Positions 15,001 to 22,725 of a stretch of DNA of 22,725 nt are shown here, piece after piece. Made by a program: the position numbers. The DNA is from a bacterium (GTDB taxonomy: Bacteria > Electryoneota > Electryoneia > Electryoneales > Electryoneaceae): the NCBI GenBank assembly GCA_043801585.1, contig JAZDLX010000084.1, positions 1-22,725 of the forward strand, in the 5' to 3' direction. Positions within the stretch are counted from its first letter, which is position 1, and every line of letters begins with the position of its first letter.

Positions 15001-18000
15001 AGATCCACGGATTGCCTGGATTCCCCGATCAGGTTGGGGGTCGAAAAAAAGAGTCTAGGGATGGCCCAACGGGAGCTCGTTTCTCTGAAAACCATCGCAG
15101 GACACTTCCGTTTGTGAGGTTATGCTTCCCTTGTCAGTTTCAGCCCACGCAAAAAACATCTTGTGATATTTATGACAAGGTGGAGCCAGTATCCCTGCAC
15201 GTCCGATGGCAGCTCCCGGAGAAAGTCTCTTGACCTCTCTTTAAATGTGCAGGCTAAGTTCATAAAACAAAAATTCTTTCTTCAAATAGCCATCACTATT
15301 TAGCGGAAAAATTTTCATCATGCTTTCTGTAAAAGGATGATAATAGGTCTCTCCTTGCTCCTCAATTCACAAATCTAAGAATTTGATTTTATGTACCATG
15401 GATGGACGTAAATAACGGATGGAGCCCACCTCCGCACCTGCACTTTTCTGTGTAACCCAGTTCTGATGCGGATTTACGCCATCTTTCAGGGGGAGCCCTA
15501 CTCGAAAACGGCGTGTTAGGTTTTCCTAAATAATTGACTTCCATGACATTTACGTGACATTTTGTGCCGTTCATCACAGGGTCTTCCCTGAAAACATACG
15601 TTCGCGACATAACAGTTCGGGATTAACGAGAGGTGTTTATGCATCGGAAGACGTTTGCAGTACTGTTGCTCGCCCTTGTCGTGGCGGTTGGTTTCATCGG
15701 CTGCGCGGGCGAGGACGGAGCCCAGGGCCCCCAGGGACCGAGTGGAAATGACGGCCAGGATATGACGGCTGTCACCTACAAGGGCTACACAAATCTTGAA
15801 TGGGCTTGCGGTTCCTGCCACGGCGCTGAGATCGTCGCTTCTTATGAAGGCACGGCGCACTCGCATGCCTACGCGGACCTCGTCGCGGACGGAGATGAGA
15901 ACAGCCCCTATTGCGTCCAGTGCCACACGACGGGTTGGGACGCCACCGTCGCCCGCACCGACACGGTCATCGTAAACAACGATGGTCCGGATCAGTACGG
16001 CTTCGACAACTACTTCCAGGTCGAGGGTGATTACGCGGCTGCGCGTCGTGCTCAACTCGCGAACGTGCAGTGCGAGTCCTGCCACGGCCCGAAGGGCAGC
16101 AAAGACGGCATGATCGTCAACAACGTGACGGTGACGACGGAAGGCGATGCCACGGGCGCGATGTGCAATCCCTGCCACAGCCAGTACAACGAGTTGGCCG
16201 AAGCTGGCCACATCCAGAACGCGAACACTGCGCACGGCAACAGCTGCGATCCCTGCCACACGGCGGAAGGCTTCATCAAAGCCAACGACTCCGACTACGG
16301 CATTGCCCTCGACGACTTCTCGATCACGAACATCAACGCTTTTGTGGGCATCGGCGATGTGAAGACACCGTTCGGCTGCCAGACCTGCCACGACCCGCAC
16401 TCCGACGAGGGCGAGAACTACCAGCTCCGTTCCGTCAAGGACGTGCCGATCTCCTCGCAGCTCGACCGTTCCTTCACGGAACTCGGCCAGGGCCAGCTCT
16501 GCGTCCAGTGCCACCACGACCGTCGCACGGCTGAGAACATCGCCAGCAACGTCTCCGAGGGCGCTTCGGGCCACAGCTTTGGTCCACACCACAGCCCGCA
16601 GGCTGACATGTACTACGGCGTCGGCGCCCCCCGTCTGGTTGGGGCGGTTTACGACACGATCCACGCCCACCAGACCAGCTCCGGGTTCGAGGGTCTTGCC
16701 TGCGTCCGCTGCCACATGCAGCGCAATACGACGGTTCATGGCACGCCCGGCACGCTCCACAGCTCGCACACCTTCACCCCGATTGCCGCTCCCGAGGTGG
16801 AAGGCGCTGGCAACACGGGCAGCTGCGCTCCATGCCATACCGATATCACGACAGACTTCTCCCAGCATGTTGGCGCCGGTCATGACATCACGACCATCGA
16901 CAACAAGATGGAAGAGCTCGCCGTCGCCCTCGGCTTCACCGACCTCGCGGACTTCGAGGCGAACTACAGCGCCGTCGCCGCTGGTCAGGACAGCGTGAGC
17001 CGCTGCGCCGCCTACGATCTCGAATTCGTGATAAACGACGGCAGCCACGGTGTTCACAACCCGGACTATGCCTACGACCTGTTGCAGAATGCGATTGATG
17101 AGCTGCCGTAACTAAGCGGCCTTGGAAGTGACAGCCGGAATTCTCAGGGGGAGAATCGCCTGGGAATTCCGGTTTTTCATTCTGGGGGCGGGGTGAACGG
17201 CGGAAACGCTGTCACCCCGCCCCGGCGTGAATCAGGAAAAAGTAATCTTTACCAGCACGTGAGATGAGGAGCCTGAGATGCTGAAGCTGCTGCGTGAATT
17301 CGGGCAGGCGATATGGGAAGTGTTCAAACTCCCCTTCTTCCTGGTTGCGGAAGGATTCATGCGCCTGTTTGCCATCGGCTGGCGCAAACTGGTGATGCTG
17401 TTCGTCGCGGCGGTGATCCTGACCTTCGTCGTGCTGATCGGTTTCTTTGAGACAACCAGCCAACCCGGCTTCTGCGGTTCCTGCCACCTGATGGAACCTT
17501 ATATCGCAGCGTGGAAAACCTCGTCGCACGCCGATGTACCCTGCATGAAATGCCATGCGCGGCAGGGACTCTCCGGATTCCTCGAGACCAAATTCACCGC
17601 GCTCTCGATGCTTGTGAATTACGCAACGGGGATTTACAAACGCTCCAAGCCCTGGGCTGAGATTGAAGACACCGCCTGCCTGCAGTGCCACGAGACCCGC
17701 CTGCTGGAAGGCAAGATTGAGACGAAATTGGGGGTGCATTTCGACCACACCCCGCACCTGACGGAAGTGCGCCGCGGCCGCCGTCTGAGATGCACCAGTT
17801 GCCACAGTCAGATCGTGCAGGGCGAACACATCTCGATCACCCCGACGACCTGCTTCCTCTGCCACTTCAAGAATCTTGATGAAAAGGACAGGGCGAAACT
17901 CTCCCGTTGCACGCTTTGCCACGACGCTCCAACGGGCGAACACGCAAAGGAACGAAATGTTTTTGACCACGGAGAAGTGGTCAAAGGCAACGTGGATTGT

Positions 18001-21000: not shown

Positions 21001-22725
21001 GTCCACGGAAAGGTTGACTGCAATCAGTGCCACGGCGACCCCGCTAAAGCGGAACCGGTGATCCCGGGAATGACCGCGTGCCAGTCCTGCCACCTGCAGG
21101 AGAGCGGCCCGCTGGAATGCGGCGAGTGCCATCTGGGCGAATCGCCGAAACCGCAGGATCATCAACTCGCATCGTGGCACCAGGACCACGGCATCGAAGC
21201 GTCCTTCCGTGGAGATGATTGCTCCATGTGCCACACCCAGGCGACCTGTGATGAATGCCACCAGGGAGAAAATCTCTACGGCAGTCCTCATCCGCCGACA
21301 TGGGTCTTCAACCACGGAATCGAAGCGAACTGGTCGGGAGAATGCCTCTCCTGCCATGAATCCCGTGATGAGTGCACAAGCTGCCATCGCCAACGGATTC
21401 CTGTGCCCCATCCCTTCGGCGCCGCTTTTGCGAACACGGAGAACGGCGGAGCCCACGTGGACGAAGCCCGTGCATTCATCGAAAGTTGTCTGGCGTGCCA
21501 CGATGTAGGTGAGGGCGACCCCACCTGCGCACGGTGCCATGAGTGAGGAGACGGACCATGAAGAACATTGAGATACGCAAGATTGTCCTCGCAGGTGCCG
21601 CCATCGTGATGCTTGTTGCAGCGGGCTGCTACAGCAACGTTGACCCGAACTACGTGGAAACCGAGGGTGGTGTCCACCCCTTCGCCGATCCTGCGGTAAT
21701 CGGGCACCAGGAGTACCTGGCTGACAACGGATATGACTTCAACGCATGCACCGACTGCCACGGTGTGGATCTCGCGGGTGAAGCCAGCGGACCCGGCGGT
21801 TCGAAAGTGCGTTCGTGCTACGAGTGCCATTCCCCGTCAGAACATCCCGGCAACCTGACGGACGCGGACAACCATGTGACCTACCTGCGTTCGGTGGACT
21901 GGGTTTCCACGGAATGTTTGACCTGCCACGCCAAGGCCACCGATGCGCTGTTCGGCGGTTCGTGCAGCAGCACGGCATGCCATACCGCCTCTGCGGGCGG
22001 TTCGGATGCATGCAACGTTTGCCACGGAGATTTTTCAGGTGATCCCACGGAGTCAGCCAACTGGGCGCCACCCGAAGGCATTAACGGCGTGCTGAGTATT
22101 TCCGATCCCGGTGTGGGCGCTCACCAGGCCCACATGAAGGTGGATACTCTTCAGTATGCACAACTGGCCTGCTCGTCCTGCCATGCCGTGCCGAGAAGCG
22201 TGGACGCCAGTTATCACATCGACACCACCACGCCGGGCGTTGCCGAGGTTCATTTCTCCGGCGTTGCTTCCGCGGGTGGCAAACATCCGAGCTATGACGC
22301 GGATGACGCCACCTGCTCAGCGACCCATTGCCACGGCGACGCGGTACCCGTGTGGACGGTAGTGGACGGCACGTGGAGCGCCTGCGGCACCTGCCACGGC
22401 AATGCGACAACGGGCAATCCCAGTCCGCACTCCAACGAGAATTACGAGATCACGGACTGTGCAACGTGCCACGGCGCGGTGATCAATGCGAGCGGGACGA
22501 TCATCAATGCCAGCAAACATGTCAACGGTGTAGTTGATTGATTTTGACAATAGTTTCCTTGCAAACACAAAGCCAGGGAGGGGTAGAACAATGCGTCGTG
22601 TGATCTTGATGGTGCTGGCGGTCATGCTGGTCGCCTCCGTCGCCGCGTTCTCAGGCGACCACGCCTTCGTAGGCGTGAACAAGTGCAAGATGTGTCACCA
22701 GCGTGAAGCGAAAGGCATGATCTTC

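Follow-up and report, generated by a model that had tools for sequence, protein, structure and literature searches.

Gene content and layout of the cluster

The window, that is, the whole 22,725-nt stretch of DNA analysed from an Electryoneota bacterium, carries five same-strand open reading frames, g01951 to g01955, at the positions claimed for them earlier (15639..22541). Recounted CxxCH motifs number 9, 18, 0, 12 and 7, respectively, as the earlier note had it, and in 1000 shuffles of each protein the count averaged 0.16 or less and never exceeded 3. The cluster had been ended too early, at 22541: it has a sixth gene, which begins at 22591 and continues onto contig C131, whose first 141 nt overlap exactly with the final 141 nt of the window; no other contig overlaps in this way. 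Downstream on C131 lie the selenocysteine (Sec) cytochrome, rhodanese and CbcL-like genes, all missing from the gene set first described. The gene order from the window into C131 is found in contiguous form in genomes G039, G030 and G037. The features are as follows:

15639..17111, + strand: g01951, OcwA-like 9-haem lipoprotein cytochrome with a short collagen-like tether (9 CxxCH, 0 CxxCK); accessory
17133..17180, + strand: long hairpin followed by a T-run, terminator-like, 3' of g01951 (RNAfold)
17278..19212, + strand: g01952, inner-membrane-anchored NapC/NrfH-type quinol dehydrogenase with a long multihaem arm, 18 haems (PF03264); accessory
19421..20683, + strand: g01953, plug-less 22-stranded outer-membrane beta-barrel, 420 aa; Geobacter-type Pcc porin family (OmbB/ExtB/ExtE-like), Ignavibacterium-type branch
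20680..21546, + strand: g01954, periplasmic 12-haem wire with a c7-like N-half and an OmaB-like C-half, predicted to lie inside the barrel
21558..22541, + strand: g01955, lipoprotein cytochrome, Pcc outer-membrane cytochrome (7 CxxCH and 2 CxxxxCH; 37 of 39 loci)
22591..22725, + strand: 5' part of the gene for a periplasmic tetrahaem cytochrome of the c554 type, continuing on C131 (L001:7-513; PF13435, 48.1 bits)
C131 998-2476: Sec 11-haem lipoprotein, after the c554 gene
C131 2531-3538: double-rhodanese lipoprotein, after the Sec lipoprotein gene
C131 4135 to contig end: CbcL-like protein with at least 19 haems, after the rhodanese gene

Close packing is limited to the barrel, wire, lipoprotein and c554 genes, with gaps of -4, 11 and 49 nt. 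The spacers of 166 and 208 nt among the five genes, and the hairpin with its T-run after g01951, suggest that the five do not form one tight operon. A promoter/terminator scan matched at 17160-17172; across the window it showed no excess over the chance level (8 terminator-like sites versus 7.8 by chance). The order barrel, wire, lipoprotein is kept in 37 of the 39 phylum loci fetched, and near the barrel in these loci g01951 is found in 13 and g01952 in 11; these two are accessory genes of the cluster. The NapC-type assignment of g01952 comes from PF03264 (57.6 bits, cut-off 24.1) and from a match to NrfH (2j7a_C, E 1e-7) in which CxxCHxM and a Lys are aligned. The protein has one hydrophobic segment, at about residues 29-62, in keeping with the N-terminal membrane helix that precedes the tetrahaem domain in NapC/NirT/NrfH proteins.

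The barrel and its haem partners

As claimed earlier, g01953 has no match in Pfam or NCBIfam and 31 homologs, and its 22 strands were reproduced in an AlphaFold2 model (30 rows, pLDDT 84.0) lacking an N-terminal plug. The fold searches matched it best to 22-stranded TonB-receptor barrels (Z 18.8, rmsd 4.6, 349 aligned), which have a plug domain that the model lacks. Neither MtrB nor a solved Pcc (porin-cytochrome) structure was among the matches of the fold searches, an absence that excludes nothing. Sequence searches of the PDB gave 0 matches with barrel profile A1 and OmpA only (E about 0.4) with profile A2, and the ESM Atlas returned 30 clusters without names, most commonly from Zixiibacteriota, with Myxococcota in the top three. 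NCBIfam placed no family above cut-off on 119 of the 150 distant barrels listed.

The barrel had been called family-less. This holds insofar as no curated HMM covers it, and it means only that, because OmbB-like barrels also lack an NCBIfam match; the protein is not an orphan. The broad profile A2 matches the 404-aa barrels of locus L244 at 208-222 bits and ExtABCD-like loci at 108-115 bits. L244 is a tandem duplication of barrel, 8-haem protein (232-237 aa) and 9-12-haem lipoprotein, the layout given for OmbB-OmaB-OmcB by Shi 2014 (PMC4245776); what identifies such reference loci is their layout and size, and not a comparison with G. sulfurreducens sequences. Reciprocally, a profile made only from 40 barrels of the phylum of L244 ranks g01953 first among the 8256 ORFs of its own genome (E 4.9e-19, next 0.15), and a profile of 7 OmbB-like rows finds it at E 6e-5 (next 0.89). 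Pairwise BLAST of g01953 was not significant against an OmbB-like barrel (E 0.10) or the Ignavibacteriota barrel (E 0.004), hhalign of the narrow barrel profile against an OmbB-like barrel reached only 84.9%, and identity to Geobacter Pcc barrels is below 20%, in a separate clade. The profile and reciprocal searches support membership of g01953 in the Geobacter-type Pcc porin superfamily, and the idea of a categorically new barrel was dropped. The earlier count of 52 of 79 phylum genomes rises with the broad profile to 60 of 79, one copy each; the narrow profile gives 53 of 79, with 7 genomes represented by short weak matches to a longer ORF (535-584 aa) alone. In a Caldithrix-centred phylum sample the barrel occurs in 56 of 86 genomes.

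The start of g01954 overlaps the barrel stop by 4 nt. The protein has 12 CxxCH and, like its homologs, a signal peptide without a lipobox, and its C-half matches an OmaB-like 8-haem protein (BLAST E 1e-12). Complex prediction of barrel and g01954, weakly favourable before (ipSAE 0.45 versus 0.00), was again weakly so at 0.58 against 0.00 for the best control, with at least 76% of contacts shared and partner pLDDT of at least 70; the mark for this is reached by 116 of 157 solved pairs and by 2 of 215 mismatched ones, and scores no higher than 0.60 account for only 18 of the former but for both of the latter. Next in order, g01955 passes TIGR01904 (43 bits, cut-off 27) and could bind up to 9 haems, counting its two extra CxxxxCH motifs. 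The lipobox cysteines reported for g01951 and g01955 are present, also in the N-termini of the homologs listed.

In the account of Shi 2014 (PMC4245776), a Pcc combines a porin with an adjacent periplasmic c-type cytochrome of 5-14 haems and a lipoprotein cytochrome often bearing CX3-15CH. Here there are a 22-stranded barrel, an adjacent 12-haem cytochrome, a lipoprotein cytochrome and profile similarity to the OmbB/OmaB type. Among the closest counterparts described is the Ignavibacterium album cluster IALB_1837-1840 (PMC4245776), consisting of a c554 protein, a barrel, a 400-aa 14-haem protein and an atypical-motif lipoprotein; both clusters have a porin, a large multihaem cytochrome of the periplasm, a CX3-15CH cytochrome of the outer membrane and an extra periplasmic cytochrome. 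The genome used for sequence comparison came from an uncultured member of Ignavibacteriota and not from I. album itself; at a locus (L263) of the same layout including the 400-aa, 14-haem protein, BLAST gave E 1e-38 for g01954, 6e-35 for g01955 (34% identity to a 308-aa lipoprotein) and 6e-35 for the c554 protein. The wire has 14 haems in I. album versus 12 here, and the OcwA-like lipoprotein, the NapC-anchored 18-haem protein, CbcL-like proteins and Sec cytochrome-rhodanese pair are additions relative to the cluster as described for I. album.

The porin superfamily of OmbB-OmaB-OmcB, ExtABCD and ExtEFG of G. sulfurreducens (PMC4245776; PMC6148476) is shared with g01953 by profile and reciprocal search. 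Relative to these conduits as described, the wire here is longer and has a c7-like N-half, the surface cytochromes differ, and this phylum has one barrel copy per genome. Shewanella MtrCAB shares the three-part logic, but for porins of the MtrB type 28 motifs are predicted, and their partner is a decahaem protein (PMC4245776). Of the "Pcc/Mtr-like" layout proposed earlier, the Pcc half therefore stands and the Mtr half does not: membership in Mtr/Mto/Pio was rejected on 22 strands, 420 aa, the lack of a Pfam or NCBIfam match and a 12-haem partner. The conduit reading itself is supported by profile homology to Pcc parts, the conserved order of barrel, wire and lipoprotein, and the match to the Ignavibacteriota cluster.

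OcwA-like and predicted selenocysteine cytochromes

Judging by its sequence, g01951 is an OcwA-like protein rather than an NrfA nitrite reductase. It joins a c554-like N-half to NrfA-like C-terminal helices, and its profile finds OcwA (6i5b) as the best PDB match at E 8e-21, with NrfA at 1.5e-10. The earlier NrfA-type assignment fails, the protein having nine CxxCH motifs and not five haems, no CxxCK, and 20 bits against a TIGR03152 cut-off of 692. Nine CxxCH, c554-like and NrfA-like halves, C-terminal helices and the lack of CxxCK are also described for OcwA of Thermincola potens (PMC6703420; PDB 6I5B). Unlike OcwA, g01951 occurs in a diderm, beside a Pcc porin. OcwA-type nonahaem proteins have two five-coordinate haems with distal His-His motifs; g01951 has a single HH pair, of which the second His alone is invariant. 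Its AlphaFold2 model (pLDDT 46.7) is too poor for fold comparison, the C-terminal helices alone being confident.

The 11-haem lipoprotein on C131 has 11 CxxCH, a lipobox and an N-terminal GEG-U-GG site read through an in-frame TGA. All 24 phylum genomes that gave a match have this TGA, at G-[E/D]-G-U-G-G, and in all 24 a rhodanese adjoins the cytochrome. Of the best 80 of 583 cross-phylum loci, 64 have TGA at this site and 14 have Cys; one has another residue, and in the last the site is cut off. selA, selB, selD and tRNA-Sec are all present in the genome. Conserved TGA, Cys orthologs and Sec machinery together mark the protein as a predicted bacterial selenoprotein. Candidate SECIS hairpins after the UGA fold in 24 of 24 with shifting registers; a fixed register gives 72.8% pairing (7 of 500 shuffles), and covariation is like that of shuffled sequences (255 of 500). 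Assignment to MccSep/ExtKL was rejected, as 11 CxxCH are present and not five haems, and NF040886 gave no match at E<=0.1. The 119-family selenoprotein table (PMC13188914), as far as available, has ExtKL, GSU2204, UshA-like and octahaem tetrathionate reductase entries and no GEG-U-GG undecahaem by name. A literature search, whose reach left out most subscription papers and supplements, found no paper on such an undecahaem.

Proposed electron path and possible acceptors

Taken together, the cluster is read, with a probability of roughly 85%, as an electron conduit of the Geobacter Pcc type that has an inner-membrane input of its own and runs from quinol through the periplasm and the Pcc to surface lipoproteins. 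Quinol would be oxidised by the NapC-type g01952, the CbcL-like protein of C131, or both. The periplasm would be crossed through the multihaem arms of these proteins or by the c554-type tetrahaem cytochrome, and electrons would enter g01954, which may plug the empty barrel g01953, as the predicted fold and the weakly predicted binding suggest. From there they would pass to outer-membrane lipoprotein cytochromes presumed to face outward, namely the core CxxxxCH protein g01955 and swappable terminal modules: the OcwA-like g01951, and the Sec 11-haem lipoprotein together with the rhodanese.

At odds a little short of even, the conduit may serve general electron export via g01955 and g01951, the acceptors being electrodes, humic quinones or oxides of Fe(III)/Mn(IV), with the Sec module a mere neighbour. 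In G. sulfurreducens, Pcc complexes carry out Fe(III) reduction (PMC4245776; PMC6148476), OcwA, the best PDB match of g01951, is described as a surface terminal reductase (PMC6703420), and of the 79 phylum genomes 60 keep the core, the Sec module being absent from most of these. Against this, I. album, which has the same Pcc branch, failed to grow with oxides of Fe(III) or Mn(IV) (PMC4245776), and g01951 is near the barrel in only the minority of loci given above.

More tentatively, the conduit may feed the Sec lipoprotein and rhodanese, reducing elemental sulfur or polysulfide (or selenium oxyanions) at the cell surface. The module would then be a non-homologous counterpart of Geobacter extHIJKL, where a rhodanese lipoprotein, an outer-membrane barrel and the Sec multihaem cytochrome MccSep/ExtKL likewise share one cluster (PMC13510729; PMC6148476); MccSep has 5 haems, versus 11 haems and a lipobox on C131, and its periplasmic location (PMC13510729) speaks against the sulfur reading, and the function of the Sec family here is putative. 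The TGA and adjoining rhodanese common to the 24 phylum genomes, together with the Sec machinery, favour this reading, as does the neighbourhood of the barrel: it is present in 22, and directly downstream in 17, of the best 80 of 583 cross-phylum loci, which were gathered via the Sec cytochrome and are hence biased to its carriers. In the Caldithrix-centred sample linkage is strong, the Sec cytochrome lying directly upstream of a barrel in 31 of 38 carriers (19 by coordinates plus 12 of 12 fetched). Several of these operons have no g01955-type gene after the wire, and G539 and G601 have a second, divergent barrel beside the Sec cytochrome. Within Electryoneota the barrel is found in all 24 carriers versus 36 of 55 non-carriers. 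Chloroflexota have no outer membrane, and the barrel is found in 0 of their 13 carriers. The genome also holds a PhsA/PsrA-like enzyme, while dsrA, COX1 and NiFe hydrogenase were not found in it (92% complete). However, the Sec module here begins about 480 nt after a terminator-like hairpin and, of the 39 phylum loci, only 6 have it close to the barrel. A Sec-cytochrome match is missing from 36 of the 60 phylum genomes that carry the barrel, and a barrel match from 10 of 45 other carrier genomes. Nor was the main barrel type enriched at genome level when the Caldithrix-centred sample was searched at E<=1e-40 (25 of 38 carriers versus 31 of 48, p=1.0), a threshold that excluded a divergent barrel type. 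With the same tentativeness, Electryoneota, Calditrichota, KSB1 and related lineages may share a Pcc conduit ending in an extracellular selenoenzyme and rhodanese that respires elemental sulfur or polysulfide.

An inward conduit, in which reduced minerals, sulfide or partner cells would supply electrons to the quinone pool, is unlikely. Proteins of the NapC and CbcL types are able, in principle, to function in either direction, and nothing in the sequence fixes it; yet no haem-copper oxidase was found in the genome, which limits the obvious high-potential sinks, and according to the available text of Shi 2014 (PMC4245776) none of the known Fe(II) oxidisers had a Pcc cluster. That the barrel is an ordinary solute porin amid a purely periplasmic network, e.g. 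for N- or S-oxyanion reduction by g01951, is very improbable: the fold matches are generic barrels, porin matches, weak and under the cut-off, occur for 5 of 119 distant homologs and the complex score is weak, but barrel and wire are tightly coupled, almost invariably, across phyla, the barrel is homologous to Pcc porins and g01951 lacks CxxCK.

No paper joining Electryoneota, porin and cytochrome was found in a search that left out most subscription papers and supplements (the Shi 2014 tables and a peat preprint among them), and the available text of the Electryoneota description (PMC9324843) does not mention a conduit. For the Geobacter-type Pcc conduit proposed here, the link to the Sec cytochrome makes the difference, as otherwise the cluster would be one more routine member of a family already known. 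Shi 2014 (PMC4245776) proposed reduction of S0 or selenium oxyanions for some Pcc clusters, naming no terminal enzyme in the text available, and the MccSep paper (PMC13510729), as far as available, left open by which route sulfur species get past the outer membrane. The recurring operon of Sec cytochrome, rhodanese, barrel and wire is a concrete candidate that can be tested, and if the conduit does serve sulfur the locus would hold the whole path from quinol to sulfur. As a widespread, unannotated barrel family is now assigned to Geobacter-type Pcc conduits, extracellular electron transfer appears to be a common trait of these uncultured anaerobes, and the Sec cytochrome and sulfur-carrier protein beside the conduit hint that it may serve extracellular sulfur respiration besides metal reduction.

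Parts and extent of the gene cluster

Five co-directional genes lie at the end of the window.

15639-17111, + strand, g01951: 9 CxxCH, 0 CxxCK, lipobox Cys
17278-19212, + strand, g01952: 18 CxxCH, one N-terminal hydrophobic helix, NapC/NrfH domain
19421-20683, + strand, g01953: 0 CxxCH, barrel
20680-21546, + strand, g01954 (the wire): 12 CxxCH, plain signal peptide
21558-22541, + strand, g01955: 7 CxxCH plus 2 extra CxxxxCH, lipobox Cys

ORF positions and CxxCH counts (9/18/0/12/7) agree with those of the earlier note; no protein has a CxxCK, and shuffled versions give a maximum of 3 CxxCH motifs. 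The lipobox Cys claimed for g01951 and g01955 is present there and in their listed homologs, and homologs of g01954 likewise have a plain signal peptide. Homologs named Ca. Electryonea clarkiae are in keeping with the phylum given for the DNA. The cluster end placed at 22541 is not upheld, as a sixth gene, for a c554-type tetrahaem cytochrome, begins at 22591. The window makes up all of contig C146. Its final 141 nt are the first 141 nt of contig C131, its sole partner; 141-nt end overlaps are found throughout the assembly. The join is real, since gene order is unbroken across it in two relatives, G037 and G030; G039 shows it too, up to the rhodanese, where the contig ends. C131 carries the c554-type tetrahaem, then two ORFs separated by a single in-frame TGA, a lipoprotein with a double rhodanese, and a CbcL-like gene (at least 19 haems, cut by the contig end). 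A second CbcL-like protein, with 17 haems and a cytochrome b domain, is at L002:337-2928 (G000:C151); since in relatives it comes after the 19-haem one, C151 may continue C131. Unrelated neighbours in the window, the first two judged by eye, are an epimerase-like protein ending in a secretion-type tail (853-2763, -), a fusion of an NRAMP-like transporter with a USP-like domain (7286-9181, -), and an RND efflux pair of the AcrB family (10297-14717, +).

A new AlphaFold2 model of g01953 (pLDDT 84.0) again has 22 strands, as claimed before, and its first strand begins directly after the signal peptide, so a plug domain is predicted to be lacking. Structurally the model comes closest to 22-stranded TonB-receptor barrels (Z 18.8, rmsd 4.6, 349 aligned) and to ushers, matches that show fold, not function. 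Complex prediction for g01953 and g01954, weak in the earlier note (0.45 vs 0.00), again gave weak support: 0.58 vs 0.00 for the best control, with a minimum of 76% shared contacts and a minimum partner pLDDT of 70. The mark used was reached by 116/157 solved and 2/215 mismatched pairs; of these, just 18 solved pairs but both mismatched ones scored no more than 0.60.

At E<=0.001, a search with a profile built from 30 close relatives of the barrel gave 399 representatives. A broader profile of 132 rows, A2, places the barrel in 60 of 79 phylum genomes, one copy each; the wide occurrence noted earlier thus stands, while its figure of 52/79 is replaced. Barrel, wire and CxxxxCH lipoprotein follow one another in 37 of the 39 phylum loci examined; of the other two, one is broken by Ns and one reaches the end of its contig. 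Nearby are c554 (26 loci), CbcL-like genes (18), g01951 (13), g01952 (11) and the Sec-rhodanese pair (6), counts that are lower bounds as some loci are short contigs. From these counts, the core is barrel-wire-lipoprotein(-c554), with g01951 and g01952 accessory. Another family of barrel-like proteins, longer at about 535-585 aa, matches the barrel profile weakly; its member in L078 (G028:C2:2793000-2812999) sits after 20-haem and 46-haem genes, and the family may therefore represent another conduit.

Kinship of the barrel and of g01951

Judged by sequence profiles, the g01953 barrel is a member, as remote kin, of the Geobacter-type porin-cytochrome conduit (Pcc) family. The earlier reading of a Pcc conduit is supported by profiles, reciprocal tests and locus L263, whereas its description of the barrel as family-less is not. 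In 401 genomes of another phylum, a sample centred on a Thermodesulfobacteriota record, A2 matches occur in 70. These include L244, in which a set of 404-aa barrel (208-222 bits with A2), 8-haem protein (232-237 aa) and lipoprotein with 9 or 12 haems is duplicated in tandem; L245, L248 and L250 have the ExtABCD layout (11-haem, barrel, 5-haem, lipoprotein). The labels OmbB-like and ExtABCD are based on layout and haem counts in the available text of PMC4245776 and PMC6148476. Reciprocally, a profile of 40 barrels from that sample puts g01953 first among the 8256 ORFs of its genome (E 4.9e-19, against 0.15 for the runner-up), as does one of 7 OmbB-like rows (E 6e-5; next 0.89). The kinship is called remote because pairwise BLAST of g01953 against the OmbB-like and Ignavibacteriota reference barrels gave no significant match and hhalign of the barrel profile against an OmbB-like barrel gave 84.9%. 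The wire matches an OmaB-like protein at E 1e-12.

On an Ignavibacteriota chromosome, L263 holds c554, barrel, a 400-aa 14-haem protein and an atypical-motif lipoprotein, matched by g01954 (E 1e-38), g01955 (E 6e-35) and c554 (E 6e-35). Its dimensions agree with those of I. album IALB_1837-1840 in the accessible text of Shi et al. (PMC4245776); L263 itself is from another Ignavibacteriota chromosome. In a quick tree of 123 barrels, midpoint-rooted for drawing only, the 40 Thermodesulfobacteriota-sample barrels, plus one long-branch row, stand apart from Electryoneota, Calditrichota, KSB1 and Ignavibacteria. As far as the texts available go, Pcc clusters are known from six phyla, Ignavibacterium-type branch included (PMC4245776), from Zixibacteria (FeGenie, PMC7005843) and from peat Acidobacteriota and Verrucomicrobiota (bioRxiv 10.64898/2026.05.27.727921). 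The literature search returned no paper on an electron conduit in Electryoneota.

For a 14-row g01951 profile, PDB 6i5b, which we take to be the OcwA structure, is the best match (E 8e-21), and NrfA proteins (1.5e-10) and c554 rank behind it; of the earlier NrfA/octahaem-like label, the nine haems hold and the NrfA likeness comes second. The code 6I5B occurs once in the available text of the OcwA paper (PMC6703420), which describes a surface terminal reductase with nine haems, c554-like and NrfA-like, without CxxCK. With nine haems and no CxxCK in common, the g01951 sequence fits this description.

The selenocysteine cytochrome and its linkage to the barrel

L001:998-2476 (G000:C131): Sec 11-haem lipoprotein, called as two ORFs either side of an in-frame TGA, double-rhodanese lipoprotein next

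With TGA read as Sec, the C131 ORF pair gives one 492-aa, 11-haem lipoprotein. Each of the 24 phylum genomes in which it is matched has a single TGA at G-[E/D]-G-U-G-G and an adjoining rhodanese; hairpins fold after every TGA, but with one register held fixed covariation did not exceed that of shuffled sequences. Among the best 80 of 583 cross-phylum loci, 64 have TGA at this site and 14 have Cys; one has another residue, and in one the site is cut off. One family member, in L118, has neither TGA nor Cys there, and no rhodanese was detected in that locus. The own genome has selA, selB, selD and tRNA-Sec; selD (G000:C9:16098-17024) itself has one in-frame TGA. Identity with MccSep was rejected (11 haems, no NF040886 match), and the Sec undecahaem was not seen in the 119-family selenoprotein table in the available text of PMC13188914.

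Those best 80 of 583 loci were collected with the Sec cytochrome and so are biased to carriers; 22 include a barrel, directly downstream in 17, and the other 58 genomes have a barrel match in 35/45 non-Chloroflexota (29 strong) and 0/13 Chloroflexota. Within Electryoneota, the barrel is in 24/24 Sec carriers vs 36/55 non-carriers (Fisher p 0.0004, overstated as kin are not independent). The phylum sample of the Caldithrix record (86 genomes, 38 with the Sec cytochrome, 56 with the main barrel) shows no genome-level enrichment at E<=1e-40 (25/38 carriers vs 31/48). Physical linkage in this sample is strong: by coordinates, 19 carriers have the Sec cytochrome just upstream of the barrel, and in 12/12 further loci examined the Sec cytochrome is followed by a rhodanese and then a divergent barrel; 11 of these loci also include the wire before their contig runs out. 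In total 31/38 carriers are linked, 4 are unlinked and 3 lie outside the loci examined. The divergent subtype (70-109 bits to A2) occurs in the Sec cytochrome-rhodanese-barrel-wire operons L274-L285; two genomes, G539 and G601, keep both types. In several Sec-barrel operons no gene of the g01955 type is seen behind the wire, the same pattern as in the Geobacter conduits that, in the available text of Otero et al. (PMC6148476), swap surface lipoproteins on a conserved core. They echo Geobacter extHIJKL, but with non-homologous Sec cytochromes. No paper linking a Pcc conduit with a Sec undecahaem was found in the literature search.

Electron path, acceptors and genome context

The cluster is a Pcc electron conduit with a probability of about 0.85. 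The analysis shows its parts, export signals, conserved order and Pcc homology, and also the Sec codon pattern. Quinol would be oxidised by g01952 and the CbcL-like protein, and electrons would cross the periplasm on the haem arms of these proteins or on c554. The wire g01954 would plug the barrel. Three alternative terminal modules may serve it: g01955, g01951 (OcwA-like), and the pair of Sec cytochrome and rhodanese.

Metals, humics or electrodes are plausible acceptors, at slightly under even odds. Sulfur or polysulfide, reached through the Sec module (cytochrome and adjoining rhodanese), is a more tentative candidate: linkage to the barrel in 31 of the 38 Caldithrix-sample carriers favours it, but in the own genome the module lies ~480 nt beyond a terminator-like hairpin, and of the 60 phylum genomes with the barrel, 36 lack a match to the module. 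Inward electron flow through the same parts is improbable, and an ordinary porin, given the conserved order and Pcc homology, very improbable.

At G000:C174:17290-21142, genes for a Rieske protein, a cytochrome b and a cytochrome with 18 haems stand in a row, a bc-type complex with multihaem output. At G000:C120:26208-29944, a membrane protein fused to an 8-haem domain, which we take to resemble cytochrome bd subunit I, comes after a second membrane protein. No dsrA, COX1 or NiFe hydrogenase was found in the own genome (92% complete), and the search for molybdopterin enzymes turned up just one, a PhsA/PsrA-like protein (488 bits, below the cut-off of 694). This enzyme, at L273:1198-3949 (G000:C25), is Tat-exported with an Fe-S subunit. 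The gene content fits, and does not prove, an anaerobe that would pass electrons to sulfur compounds and external acceptors.
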